From IMG/VR virus record IMGVR_UViG_3300024294_000002: a stretch of DNA of 7,617 nucleotides; one strand, 5' to 3'. Source of the DNA: a virus. Positions 1,435-7,617 of this stretch are shown here, one piece after another. Position 1 is the first letter of the stretch. Each line of letters starts with the position of its first letter. The notes below the pieces were generated by a model. That model was not told where the DNA came from and did not search any database. It was given only the letters and a program-made list of their open reading frames with translations. Made by a program: the position numbers and the translations under genes.

Positions 1435-1668
1435 ATGAGAAACCCCGCCGAAATCTACAACATGCAAGACCTGGAACTTAACGACTCGCGCGCTAGCGCG
1501 CTGCTGCTGGCCATCGAGTCATGCAGAAAGCTGGGCGAGTGGAACGAGCTTTCGCAACGGGCCTACTGGTTCCTTGCCGCGCTATGGAACGGAAACCAGG
1601 CGAGCTGGGAGAAGTGGGAAAGCCAAGTGGCGCAAGCTCTCGATGACTGCCTGGAGCGACTAGCATGA
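1435..1668 (+). CDS. Hypothetical 77-aa helical protein, first gene of the accessory operon
   Basis: The ATG has a GGAG Shine-Dalgarno sequence at a 7-nt spacing. An ATGA overlap links it to the next gene. The antisense ORFs here are Ser/Arg/Ala-rich and look non-coding. Confidence 0.65.
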   Translation: MRNPAEIYNMQDLELNDSRASALLLAIESCRKLGEWNELSQRAYWFLAALWNGNQASWEKWESQVAQALDDCLERLA

Positions 1669-2252
1669 TCGACCCTCGAGACCCAGGAACCCAACAGCTC
1701 CAGCTGGAGCAGAAGCGCGGTCGCGGCCGTCCGGCCACCGGCCAAGCTCTCAGCAATGCAGAGCGTCAGCGCCGGTATCGTGAAGCTCAAAAAGCGCAAC
1801 GTAACGAGAATATGCACAAGGACGTTGCCGAGGGTCTGCGCGCCGAGCTGGCGAAATCCGTGGAGCGGATCGAGGAGCTTGAATCCGAGCTAAAGCGCTG
1901 GAAGAAGCTGGCAACAACAGCGGAGAGAGCCAGGCAAGTAGTGGCAGAAGAGTTAACGCAACGTAACGATAATGAGCTGATGAAGCGCGTAGAGCTGGCC
2001 GAGGCCGAGCGCGACGCCATGGGCAATGAGCTGGCCATAATCAAAGCCAGGCTAGGGAATGCCCTGGAGCGCAAAACAAACATGGGATCAGCGACCTGGA
2101 GAATCCAGCGGAAAAGAGGCCGAGGCGCCTGGAAAACGCAGGCCGGGAACTACAGGAGCGAGGCGGAAGCCGTTGAGAAGCTGATGGACATGGACCCGTG
2201 CGAAGGGGCCACGTGGCGAGTAATCGAAGTTAAATCAGAGTTCGAGGATTGA
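1665..2252 (+). CDS. 195-aa putative DNA-binding protein: AT-hook-like KRGRGRP, basic helix SNAERQRRYREAQKAQR, roughly 90-aa coiled coil, small C-terminal domain
   Basis: Translation comes from the track. The RGRGRP motif is at aa 18-23. The N-x3-Q-R-x-Y-R-E basic segment is at aa 31-40. Heptad hydrophobics follow (L62, I69, L72, L76, W79, L82 and onward). A second KRGRG is at aa 150-154. Confidence 0.7.
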   Translation: MIDPRDPGTQQLQLEQKRGRGRPATGQALSNAERQRRYREAQKAQRNENMHKDVAEGLRAELAKSVERIEELESELKRWKKLATTAERARQVVAEELTQRNDNELMKRVELAEAERDAMGNELAIIKARLGNALERKTNMGSATWRIQRKRGRGAWKTQAGNYRSEAEAVEKLMDMDPCEGATWRVIEVKSEFED

Positions 2253-2462
2253 CCGGCAGGCGTCCTGCAGAGCTGCTAGGCGGGCGTCCAGGGTGGCGCC
2301 CTCTTCATCAAGCTGCGCAACGCGGCGGCGCAACTCGCGCAACTCACCGACCAACCTCCCGTAGTCCTCGACCAAGTGTTCGACGGCGCCCTGATCGTCA
2401 CGACCAGGGGCGTAGAGGCGTGCGTTACGTAACAAATATTCGGGAAGGTCTAGGACTGGCAT
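2235..2462 (-). CDS. Hypothetical 75-aa coiled-coil protein, convergent with and overlapping the 195-aa gene by 18 bp
   Basis: ATG at 2462-2460. Third-position GC is high, as in the other phage genes. The opposite-strand ORF (2249-2683) is Arg/Pro-rich and looks like noise. I see no clear Shine-Dalgarno sequence, so the start and expression are uncertain. Confidence 0.5.
   Translation of the reverse strand: MPVLDLPEYLLRNARLYAPGRDDQGAVEHLVEDYGRLVGELRELRRRVAQLDEEGATLDARLAALQDACRSILEL
2424..2433. promoter_or_regulatory. Third copy of the perfect 10-bp palindrome GTTACGTAAC
   Basis: The match to 1363-1372 and 1388-1397 is exact. It lies 27-38 nt inside the 5' end of the 75-aa ORF and about 25 bp from the dif-like site. 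Confidence 0.6.
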
Positions 2463-4038: not shown

Positions 4039-5394
4039 TTATGCCTCCAAGAAAACGCGAACAGCCGCCAATGCCCATATAGCAAGCATGACGTAATAAA
4101 GCGGGTCAAATAGATCAGCGTTCTGACAGACCCAGTTAAACGAGATAGAGCCGATAACCGGGATAGTTGCACTACCGAAGTTGCAAGAGCCGCCCGATGG
4201 CATAGCAATACCCTGAACAGCGGCGAACACTGGTGAGTTGCCGGCCCTTGAGTAGAACGAACTCAGGGATTCGCCGAAGCCTGGCACATCGTCATTACCC
4301 GGAAGGTCGCCACCGCCCTCCTGATCATCGCCATCGCCGGAGCCAGAACCGCCACCGCCGCCGCCACCGCCGCCCTTGCCATCCTCACCACATTTAGCAC
4401 CCTTGCAAGAAACTTCGACCTTAGTTGTAGTACCTGAGCCATCAGTCTTTGTAGTAGTGGTAGTAGTGGTCGTAGTAGTGGTGCAATTATCGTTGTTGCC
4501 GGTGCACTTTGTCTCCGTATGAACATCAGTCTTTACGGTAGTTTTGCCGCCATCGGCTTCGGGCGTTTCAGTTACTTCTGTTTGAATCTTTGTTTCGTCC
4601 CTCTTTGCCTCTTTGGGAAAGCACTTGACTTGCTCACTACCAGCAGGCCCAGCCGTTCCGCAATTCTGGCCCTGCTGTTCAACTTCTTTGCTAGACATAC
4701 AGTGAGAGCGGCCCTCAGCATCCTGAACATAGATACAAGGCTCCTCATTGTTAGTCACTTCTGGTTCCTCCTCGCGAACAGTTGGCGAAGAATCGACGGA
4801 AGTAGGCCCCGCCGTGCATTGCTCACCAGTAAAAAACGCACGACCAGAACAAGAGTAACGATTAGCGGAAATTGTGAAAACACACGATTGATTCAAAAAA
4901 GCAGTACACCCGCCTAGACATGCAACGTCAGGAGTAACACCCATGTTTTTTCCGCCAACATTGACAGTGTCATAAAAGCCATCACCACGGGAGCCGGTCT
5001 TACTAAAAGGCTCATCTTGACCGACTTTATCTTGGCAGGAGTTTTCTGGCTCTTGAGGCGCTTCGCATTCGCCGGTTTGAGAGTTATAAGTCGCGGGATC
5101 AGTACAGCCATCACCGTAACGTGACGTAATTTGAGAGCTATAAGTAGCGCCACTACCGAGAAGAAGAACGCATCTATAATTAGTGTCGTTTACTTTATCA
5201 ATCCGCAAAGAAAAATTAGTTGATGGTGCCAACTCCTGATTAGCCATCAAATAAGCATTACAGGCTGAAGAAATAGATGAATATTTACCTCCCAGCATTG
5301 ACCAATAATAATCCTCAGCAACTGAGGCGGCAGAATAAAAACCCGACGAAACAATCAGCAAAAACAGCGCGATATGATTTTGAAGTTTGCGCAT
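4039..5394 (-). CDS. gIII-like adsorption / minor coat protein, 451 aa from the ATG at 5394
   Basis: It has a signal-peptide-like N-terminus (MRKLQNHIALFLLIVSSGFYSAASVA/EDYYW) and a Cys-rich N-terminal region. A T10 run and a G8-SGSGDGDD linker follow, and a C-terminal TM anchor (YYVMLAIWALAAVRVFLEA). The track's TTG start at 5418 is an alternative. Confidence 0.8.
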   Translation of the reverse strand: MRKLQNHIALFLLIVSSGFYSAASVAEDYYWSMLGGKYSSISSACNAYLMANQELAPSTNFSLRIDKVNDTNYRCVLLLGSGATYSSQITSRYGDGCTDPATYNSQTGECEAPQEPENSCQDKVGQDEPFSKTGSRGDGFYDTVNVGGKNMGVTPDVACLGGCTAFLNQSCVFTISANRYSCSGRAFFTGEQCTAGPTSVDSSPTVREEEPEVTNNEEPCIYVQDAEGRSHCMSSKEVEQQGQNCGTAGPAGSEQVKCFPKEAKRDETKIQTEVTETPEADGGKTTVKTDVHTETKCTGNNDNCTTTTTTTTTTTKTDGSGTTTKVEVSCKGAKCGEDGKGGGGGGGGGSGSGDGDDQEGGGDLPGNDDVPGFGESLSSFYSRAGNSPVFAAVQGIAMPSGGSCNFGSATIPVIGSISFNWVCQNADLFDPLYYVMLAIWALAAVRVFLEA

Positions 5395-5482
5395 ATCACC
5401 AACCCCAAAAAACAACACAGGCAGTTATGCCGCCGAGAAACAAAAAAACTACCTCATACAATTCCGGCATAGTTCACCTCGA

Positions 5483-6948: not shown

Positions 6949-7617
6949 GTGGCCACCAGTTGCAGATGACGCGGAACGACCGCGTGCCGGTAGAACTCAG
7001 GCACCTGGGCGGCGAAGGTGACTTCGACCTCGCGCACGTTGCGAGTGAAGGTGAAGACGGTGCCGTGGCGGGTCTGGTCGTAGGGGACCTTGATATCAAT
7101 GTTCAGCTGACGAAGGCGCGCACGGTGCGTCTTGACGGCTGATTTTTCAAAGTCGAAGGCCTGGCCAGCACGCCACAGAGACACGTATTGCGACGTGGTG
7201 TAGGCCGACTTGGTGTTCTTGCAGATGCCTTCGGCAACGAGCTGTTGCGCAATGGTCAGTTCGTCGTAGTTGGTCACTTCCAGTCGGTTGCCGACCATAA
7301 GAAACCCCTTGTGGATTTCCACTAACTTGGATTCGTCAAAAAGGCCCCAGAACGAGAGGCCCTCCCTCTTCAAAAACTCCGATCTGCACTTGATTTCGGA
7401 GCGAACCATGCCGACCGAGGCACACCAGTCGCGCAGGTCCCGGACGTACCGGAATTCGTCAGATTCTTCACCGAACGTGCGTTTCACCTTGGGCAAGAGG
7501 TGCGCGTCGAGTTCGGCGGCTTTGGCGTAGTTGCCCGGGTAAACCAAGCGGCCGGCCTTCTCGCCGCCCTTGGGTGTCCAAACGCAGGTATTGCCGTCCG
7601 GGTAAAGATAAGCAATC
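6945..7617 (-). CDS. Replication initiation protein, C-terminal part; continues upstream into 128-585 through the circular junction
   Basis: This is the same frame as the 1-585 segment. The track's 200-aa ORF (TTG at 7547) is only the window-limited piece. The stop is TGA at 6947-6945. Confidence 0.85.
   Translation of the reverse strand, partial: IAYLYPDGNTCVWTPKGGEKAGRLVYPGNYAKAAELDAHLLPKVKRTFGEESDEFRYVRDLRDWCASVGMVRSEIKCRSEFLKREGLSFWGLFDESKLVEIHKGFLMVGNRLEVTNYDELTIAQQLVAEGICKNTKSAYTTSQYVSLWRAGQAFDFEKSAVKTHRARLRQLNIDIKVPYDQTRHGTVFTFTRNVREVEVTFAAQVPEFYRHAVVPRHLQLVAT
7491..7617. repeat. Terminal overlap copy 2, identical to 1-127
   Basis: Same comparison as for copy 1. The minus-strand rep frame at 7616 is in phase with the frame starting at 585 (585-126 = 459, which is 153 codons). 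Confidence 0.9.

Follow-up and report, generated by a model that had tools for sequence, protein, structure and literature searches.

The 195-amino-acid protein encoded by a small filamentous phage (IMG/VR record IMGVR_UViG_3300024294_000002; its 7,617 nucleotides, analysed in full, are referred to here as the window) very probably binds TTACGTAA-type sites situated around its own gene. Comparison of the protein, its relatives and the DNA surrounding their genes suggests that it functions as a sequence-specific DNA-binding regulator of a small Pseudomonas-type inovirus, acting as a class-specific autoregulator by means of an N-terminal head and a coiled coil; to this reading we assign a probability of about 70%. 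The pairing of protein and motif, proposed in a preliminary description of this DNA, is borne out across 85 related loci fetched for comparison, in which the class of the basic segment of the protein covaries with the DNA word. On these grounds the association of the protein with the TTACGTAA-type words is strongly supported.

The gene occupies positions 1665 to 2252 on the plus strand of the window (taken from the list of open reading frames, ORFs) and its product matches phrog_10506 (E = 5.5e-16), a group whose function is recorded as unknown. Neither Pfam nor NCBIfam yields any family match, and in Pfam, NCBIfam, PHROGs and the literature alike no named function is given for the family, in agreement with the preliminary description. 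Three parts can be distinguished: an N-terminal module (residues 1–48), a coiled coil (approximately residues 54–135) and a small beta/alpha domain (residues 144–189). The AT-hook-like arm KRGRGRP, the basic segment and the heptad coiled coil that had been noted earlier are all present. The arm (residues 17–23; 1713 to 1733, plus strand) contains the invariant alignment columns R20, G21, R22 and P23. The Pfam AT_hook family (PF02178) gives a sub-threshold match in the relative L079 only (E = 0.012), and AT-hook-rich giant proteins cross-match the profile of the N-terminal module. The basic segment NAERQRRYREAQK, read directly from the sequence at residues 31–43, falls within a basic helix running from S30 to R46, SNAERQRRYREAQKAQR (1752 to 1802, plus strand), and heptad hydrophobic repeats follow at approximately residues 54–86 and 102–135.

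An AlphaFold2 (AF2) model built with the family alignment has a mean predicted local distance difference test score (pLDDT) of 85.8. In this model residues 1–30 are without regular structure, a single helix begins at residue 31 and extends to residue 139 with pLDDT above 90, and a beta-beta-alpha-beta domain occupies residues 144–189. Profile searches of the PDB with the protein returned only coiled-coil or arginine-rich noise. The Foldseek comparison suggested in the preliminary description was uninformative, producing nothing at E ≤ 0.001 against the PDB and viral models, with the small C-terminal domain alone giving weak matches to uncharacterised phage proteins and PaaB.

The DNA sites are clustered around this gene. 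Three perfect copies of GTTACGTAAC are found at 1363, 1388 and 2424, as first reported, against an expectation of 0.01, and none of 200 shuffled sequences reaches three; the heptamer CGTTACG occurs 11 times against 0.78 expected, with nine of the copies in 1315–2533. The iteron GTTGATTTATCGTTACG, which joins an ATTTAT tract to a CGTTACG half-site as had been described, is present three times, at 1305, 1352 and 1377, and ATTTAT flanks the upstream half-sites. All of the following sites are given on the plus strand. The distal iteron (1305 to 1321) is a single half-site with its AT-rich flank, and a further CGTTACG at 1329 to 1335 stands without the ATTTAT flank, a position kept in the relatives L001 and L021. 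Iteron 2, or operator O2 (1352 to 1373), consists of GTTGATTTAT followed by the 12-bp palindrome CGTTACGTAACG, whose centre lies about 30 bp upstream of a perfect TATAAT. This hexamer (1398 to 1403) is the putative −10 box of the operon formed by a 77-amino-acid ORF and the gene itself, and iteron 3, or proximal operator O1 (1377 to 1397, CCTATTTATCGTTACGTAAC), directly abuts it. Two extra CGTTACG copies, overlooked in the preliminary description, lie within the gene at the codons for QRNE (1800–1806) and QRND (1962–1968). In-gene site 1 (1794 to 1811) reads GCG CAA CGT AAC GAG AAT (A-Q-R-N-E-N) and presents the half-site TCGTTAC on the minus strand; in-gene site 2 (1953 to 1975) reads TTA ACG CAA CGT AAC GAT AAT (L-T-Q-R-N-D-N) and presents ATTATCGTTACG on the minus strand. 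Finally, a downstream palindrome, CGTTACGTAAC (2423 to 2433), is situated in the 5′ part of a 75-amino-acid ORF at the codons L-L-R-N-A and is kept in L001–L003.

A total of 159 database homologues of the protein were found, all unnamed and mostly from 7–8 kb contigs or Pseudomonas genomes. Their alignment is almost invariant over residues 1–48, but variable and mosaic in the middle and at the C-terminus. The basic segments fall into three classes: A, SNAERQR (29 loci including the window); B, T[P/A]AEKQR (39 loci); and C, [S/T]DAERAR (16 loci). When repeated 7-mers around the gene were tallied de novo, each head class proved to have its own repeated word. With at least three copies per locus as the criterion, the top word is CGTTACG in class A (25 of 29 loci), GTAACGT / AACGTTA (GTAACGTTAC) in the TPAEKQR class B (36 of 39) and CGTGACG in the SDAERAR class C (all 16). 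Oriented with respect to the dyad, the half-site has the form ATTTAT-C-GTNAC, in which N is T in class A, A in class B and G in class C, and the covariation of class with word assigns specificity to residues 31, 34 and 35. Palindromes counted by their middle base give 38 T, 9 A, 0 G and 0 C in class A; 0 T, 112 A, 0 G and 5 C in class B; and 4 T, 0 A, 23 G and 0 C in class C. The density of CGTTACG, 1.02 per kb in class A, falls to 0.25 in class B and 0.24 in class C (p = 2e-12). SNAERQ proteins that have diverged strongly and come from other lineages (L066, L073, L079, L082 and L083, from Chromobacterium) keep T-type sites, SPAEKQ proteins are accompanied by A-type sites, and a Methylobacter SDADRAR protein has a G-type site.

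The arrangement of the sites is shared between the classes. The proximal site abuts TATAAT in each of them, as tatttatCGTTACGTAAC in class A, catttacgGTAACGTTAC in class B and tgtttatCGTGACgcGTCACG in class C, and other sites are found 25–90 bp upstream, within the gene at about +140 and often about +300, and 3′ of the gene, where class C carries CGTGACGTCACG immediately downstream. In most relatives the operators directly precede the gene, whereas in the window the 77-amino-acid ORF is inserted between them. Natural exchanges show that the part of the protein beyond the helix is independent of class: the class B proteins L004–L009 score 185–205 against the window protein in this part, whereas the class A proteins L010–L016 and L021 score only 62–152, and in L042–L046 a head and operators of class B accompany a body resembling class A. 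Since the post-helix part does not track class, the DNA word follows the N-terminal module. The neighbouring small ORFs were also considered as the real binders and rejected. The ORFs of 59, 65 and 77 amino acids occur in only 1–3 of 86 loci each, the 75-amino-acid ORF is missing from class C, and no neighbouring ORF co-occurs throughout.

The sites within the gene appear to be maintained as DNA. In 15 distinct class A sequences codons 44–47 are always GCG CAA CGT AAC, despite the fact that CAA makes up 40% of the Gln codons in these genes and CGT 21% of the Arg codons, and that other conserved residues use two to five different codons. At the same place class B encodes x-N-V-T as (G)GT AAC GTT AC and class C encodes R-D-D/A...S-R as CGT GAC G...TCA CGA, so that the class word is kept while the amino-acid context changes. 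The same holds for the second in-gene site. In L042–L046 the in-gene codon AAC has become TAC (QRNE to QRYE), a change made together with that of the head. Because the codons are frozen in class A, and the class word persists despite altered amino acids, the in-gene site is, as judged from these coding sequences, selected at the DNA level.

These observations suggest the following mechanism. The RGRP arm would occupy the minor groove along the ATTTAT tract and, seven residues further on, the short basic helix S30–R46 would enter the major groove to read the C-GTTAC half-site next to it. Two heads would be paired by the coiled coil, presumably as a dimer, on palindromes of the form GTTAC|GTAAC or on neighbouring half-sites; on ATTTATCGTTACGTAACGATAAAT the helix of each head would enter the major groove from its capped N-terminus while the arm occupies the minor groove. 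The protein most likely represses its own operon, because the proximal operator abuts its own −10 box, and occupancy of O1 would be expected to have this effect. The sites in the gene, after the gene and beside the hairpin attP site described below could allow a larger nucleoprotein complex to form over about 1.2 kb; the sites other than O1 probably stabilise such a higher-order complex or regulate the convergent 75-amino-acid gene. Between phages, head and operators move as one immunity-like specificity cassette.

A number of points weigh against this autoregulator model. No −35 element can be recognised, and a consensus scan revealed no full sigma-70 promoter at this place, so that the promoter is deduced from the conserved TATAAT alone. 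A scan of the window for CGTTACG found no class site at the Rep promoter (586–708), and a role as a classical lysogeny repressor is consequently not supported. Certain class A loci (four in one tally; L012, L014, L015, L016 and L021 in a second) have a tandem CGTTACGTTAC in place of the palindrome CGTTACGTAAC at the proximal or second operator, which implies, on the basis of site geometry, that two heads can sit in direct as well as inverted arrangements. The upstream operators lie less than 150 bp from the codons of the N-terminal module, and co-inheritance alone could therefore give part of the covariation. Furthermore, there are only three main classes, though divergent members and swaps add cases. 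Lastly, class B loci L004 and L017–L020 carry near codon 100 the sequence TCG TCA CGT GAC GAT (S-R-D-D), a palindrome CGTCAC|GTGACG of a fourth type (middle base C) that corresponds to neither class A, B nor C; possible explanations are a remnant left by recombination and a fourth, so far unseen, class that uses it.

The N-terminal module defines a large family of uncharacterised phage and plasmid proteins. A profile of this module retrieves 1,774 representatives at 50% identity, 291 of them at E ≤ 1e-10, nearly always at residues 1–48 of proteins of 60–240 amino acids, and also in about 140 small plasmids, where it adjoins rep and mobC genes; among 138 representatives no recurrent Pfam domain follows the module. 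The window family aligns over residues 1–52 with a family of about 90 amino acids (hhalign probability 98.6%, E = 1e-15) that continues into a ribbon-helix-helix (RHH)-like domain. This second family aligns in turn over its full length with E. coli YbfE (96.5%, E = 7e-10) and falls just below the cutoff of PF10723, RepB-RCR_reg (17–20.6 bits against 21). YbfE ('LexA regulated protein', NF008671) and PF10723 proteins share with the window protein the N-terminal arm T-x-D-L-x ... R-G-R-P ... S-x-A-E-R/K-Q ... R, and all are small regulators on mobile elements, but the former have an RHH domain where the window protein has a coiled coil and a beta/alpha domain. The window protein itself matches none of PF10723, RHH and NF008671, its AF2 model shows a coiled coil where the RHH domain would be, and YbfE alone against the window-family profile is not significant. 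Taken together, these profile alignments make the N-terminal module homologous to the arm of small YbfE-like RHH proteins. A relationship of the module family to the CopB/RepA2 proteins of IncFII is suggestive only, the comparison reaching probabilities of 10–25%. As a separate observation, the extreme N-terminus of the window protein (residues 1–16; 1665–1712) is conserved as D-x-x-T-Q-x-L-x-L, with an equivalent T-L-D-L-F in YbfE (residues 7–14) and T-G-D-M-F in the plasmid members L087 and L088. We take this TQxLxL / TLDLF motif to resemble the beta-clamp-binding motifs QL[SD]LF and, in Hda, QLSLPL.

The preliminary description had likened the protein to the basic leucine zipper (bZIP) family. 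A true bZIP homologous to the eukaryotic Yap/Pap1 or PAR proteins, whether acquired or shared by ancestry, with one continuous basic-zipper helix seated on TTACGTAA, would account for several features: N31-x7-R39 is present, Q and an aromatic residue stand at Pap1-like positions, the window's GTTACGTAAC equals the Pap1/PAR site, the change from Q to A accompanies that from TTAC to TGAC, and the AF2 helix is continuous from 31 to 139. Such an origin is nevertheless scarcely credible. Neither the whole protein (E ≤ 1) nor residues 1–62 together with nine relatives (E ≤ 10) matches bZIP_1 (PF00170), bZIP_2 (PF07716) or Maf; no bZIP family is among those listed for the 138 module representatives; no bZIP chain emerges from the PDB profile search; and a PROSITE-like bZIP pattern is also absent. 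N31 lies at the N-terminal end of the predicted helix as the first helical residue of an apparent S/T-x-x-E capping box; class B proteins have Pro or Ala at this position and class C proteins Asp. The zipper register R-x9-L-x6-L fails, the residues at R39+10+7k being N, E, A, E, K, T and Q, and the heptads begin near residue 54 in a different frame, after a linker that varies in length in the alignment. Of the architecture proposed, the basic helix running into a coiled coil is upheld by the AF2 model of the window protein, but its continuity is not general. In P0041, which has a proline linker, the helix is split into 32–53 and 58–112 with a break at 54–57, and a proline lies between basic helix and coil in 39 of 135 representatives (about 29%). 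The spacing of half-sites is likewise flexible, at 0 bp in the window, 1 bp in L073 and L079 and 2 bp in the class C proximal site, and tandem and isolated half-sites also occur. With the module homologous to YbfE-like RHH arms instead, the bZIP resemblance is convergent, an outcome the preliminary description had allowed for; it is an analogy and not family membership.

The remaining alternatives concern what binds the words and to what end. An iteron array serving mainly in replication or maintenance, as an origin enhancer, copy-number or centromere-like element, with the protein as a replication or segregation factor perhaps acting on the XerCD attP, is rather unlikely, and it is in any case compatible with autoregulation. 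The class C homologue in the GenBank phage Pf 42-1 is named 'replication regulatory protein RepB', the links to PF10723 and CopB/RepA2 point weakly in the same direction, numerous sites extend across 1.2 kb, some of them in the gene and beside attP, and the plasmid modules adjoin rep and mobC. However, the RepB label is automatic, the paper describing Pf 42-1 does not discuss the gene, and the window protein has no match to PF10723. There is moreover no site near the Rep promoter, and no partition ATPase is encoded among the genes of the window, as judged from the ORF list and from domain and PHROG matches; only the operator on the −10 box is invariant from class to class. It is less probable still, at long odds, that another factor of host or phage binds the words and that their tracking of the head class merely reflects adjacency to its codons. 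The close linkage of operators to N-terminal codons noted above would permit this, and the words CGTTAC at 2474 and 2528 belong to dif-like arms and are not class-specific. Yet the rarity of the 59-, 65- and 77-amino-acid ORFs and the absence of the 75-amino-acid ORF from class C leave no consistent phage candidate, and a host factor is difficult to reconcile with words that differ among phages of the same host genus. Class-matched sites also occur beyond the recombining C-terminal part, and L042–L046 changed the in-gene word along with the head. Finally, the arginine-rich segment might be an RNA-binding motif of the lambda N or HIV Rev kind acting on its own mRNA at the in-gene sites. Some sites do lie inside the transcript, and the PDB profile search gave a weak match (E = 0.3) to a fusion of a coiled coil with the arginine-rich peptide of Rev, but this reading is highly improbable as those sites that are conserved best are palindromes located upstream of the −10 box, hence untranscribed, sites occur in both orientations and no Rfam family is matched.

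The gene is carried by an inovirus genome that is circular and complete at about 7,490 bp, bases 1–127 of the window recurring at 7491–7617 as a 127-bp terminal redundancy. A whole-genome megablast against GenBank phages found no match and no close DNA relative, and a scan with Rfam matched no family. The rolling-circle Rep gene (G2P C-terminal domain, phrog_702) lies on the minus strand, starts at 585 and wraps around the window ends, so spanning the circular junction. The other minus-strand genes encode a putative single-stranded DNA-binding protein, a 44-amino-acid major coat protein, a pIII-like protein of 459 amino acids, a pVI-like protein and Zot/pI. Ten consecutive Thr residues and a Gly-rich stretch, GGGGGGGGSGSG, occur in the pIII-like protein (4039–5418); Thr/Gly-rich linkers of this sort are typical of inovirus receptor-binding proteins. 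The plus strand carries an accessory module of ORFs of 59, 65, 77 and 195 amino acids. The first of these starts at 709, is divergent to Rep and belongs to phrog_5219. Between it and the start of Rep is a direct repeat, GAAATTAGTTTCTG, in two copies 18 bp apart (605–618 and 623–636), which is probably a separate operator for another small regulator. An element CCATACCAAAGTGGGGGTGTTACAGCACCCCCAC at 1093–1130 has a 9-bp G/C stem and a 6-nucleotide loop, and a near-identical copy lies 3′ of the gene in the very divergent L073; its fold energy is not significant on its own (z = −1.5), and it may be an origin, a nick site or a packaging signal.

Immediately around the 195-amino-acid gene, the 77-amino-acid ORF (1435 to 1668, plus strand) occupies the interval between operators and gene. 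Its stop overlaps the ATG of the gene (ATGA), from which it appears to be translationally coupled, but just 3 of 86 loci carry it, drawn from both class A and class B, and it is an accessory gene outside the conserved system. On the other side, the convergent 75-amino-acid coiled-coil ORF (2235 to 2462, minus strand; phrog_13909) overlaps the 3′ end of the gene by 18 nucleotides and has weak ZapB and bZIP_1 coiled-coil matches. It is found in classes A and B and in 0 of 16 class C loci, and is a possible second regulated gene. Beyond it, two inverted dif-like sites (inverted repeats I1 and I2, 2458 to 2554) have the sequence atCGCATAAT-ggacg-TTACATTAAAT plus its partner, and as virion-strand single-stranded DNA would form a forked hairpin (free energy −32.6 kcal/mol, z = −8.9) that is kept in all classes. 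By its sequence and predicted fold this hairpin is a CTXphi-type XerCD attP. The chromosomal relative L081 has a perfect host dif (TCGCATAATGTATATTATGTTAAAT) about 6.6 kb away, at 1380–1404 of that locus. On the opposite strand the XerD-side arm reads ATTTAATGTAAC, similar to the class B half-site ATTTAnnGTAAC.

A broader proposition, for which the chances seem evenly divided, is that the module represents a convergently evolved prokaryotic analogue of the bZIP head. In this proposal an AT-hook-like arm and a capped helix of about 17 residues would be mounted on different dimerisers, coiled coil or RHH, with residues 31, 34 and 35 setting the middle base of GTNAC. The whole would form an exchangeable cassette, present in at least 1,700 clusters on inoviruses and small plasmids, with its own operator written in the coding sequence. 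If confirmed, these proposals would mean that bacteria and phages possess one more compact, modular unit for recognising DNA, together with an unusually transparent protein-to-DNA code in which three natural specificities differ by one base and two or three residues, a code useful for designing orthogonal repressor/operator pairs. A role would also be supplied for a large family, so far unannotated, of the recently described small Pseudomonas inoviruses and of small plasmids, and differences in regulatory specificity among close XerCD-integrating filamentous phages would be explained. The gene also illustrates cleanly how a regulator's operator constrains the codons that encode it.

A number of parallels can be drawn with known systems. 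RstR of CTXphi and its ig-2 operators likewise combine a divergently oriented regulator with operators exchanged as a unit in XerCD-integrating inoviruses, but RstR is a helix-turn-helix protein of a different fold, and the window system is without operators at the replication-gene promoter. AT-hooks of the HMGA type have the same RGRP core with basic flanks adjoining an AT-rich tract. In Skn-1-type proteins a monomeric basic head with a minor-groove arm, arm and basic helix acting together, can recognise a single half-site, a situation comparable to that of iteron 1. The closest analogy is with the eukaryotic bZIP proteins, in which a basic helix is also followed by a dimerising coiled coil and the targets are also palindromes with an ACGT core. 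Pap1/Yap proteins (NxxAQxxFR, site TTACGTAA) and PAR-bZIP proteins recognise the class A site GTTACGTAAC, and the class C downstream site CGTGACGTCACG contains the bZIP CRE site TGACGTCA. The change of Gln35 to Ala that accompanies TTAC to TGAC parallels the difference between Pap1 and AP-1/CREB. Nevertheless there is no homology: the window Asn lies at the helix cap and is unconserved, the zipper is out of register, and the family has a variable, often proline-containing linker together with flexible half-site spacing and orientation. Unlike bZIP proteins, the window family would read its sites with an extra RGRP arm and an AT-rich flank, and it is found in phages and plasmids.

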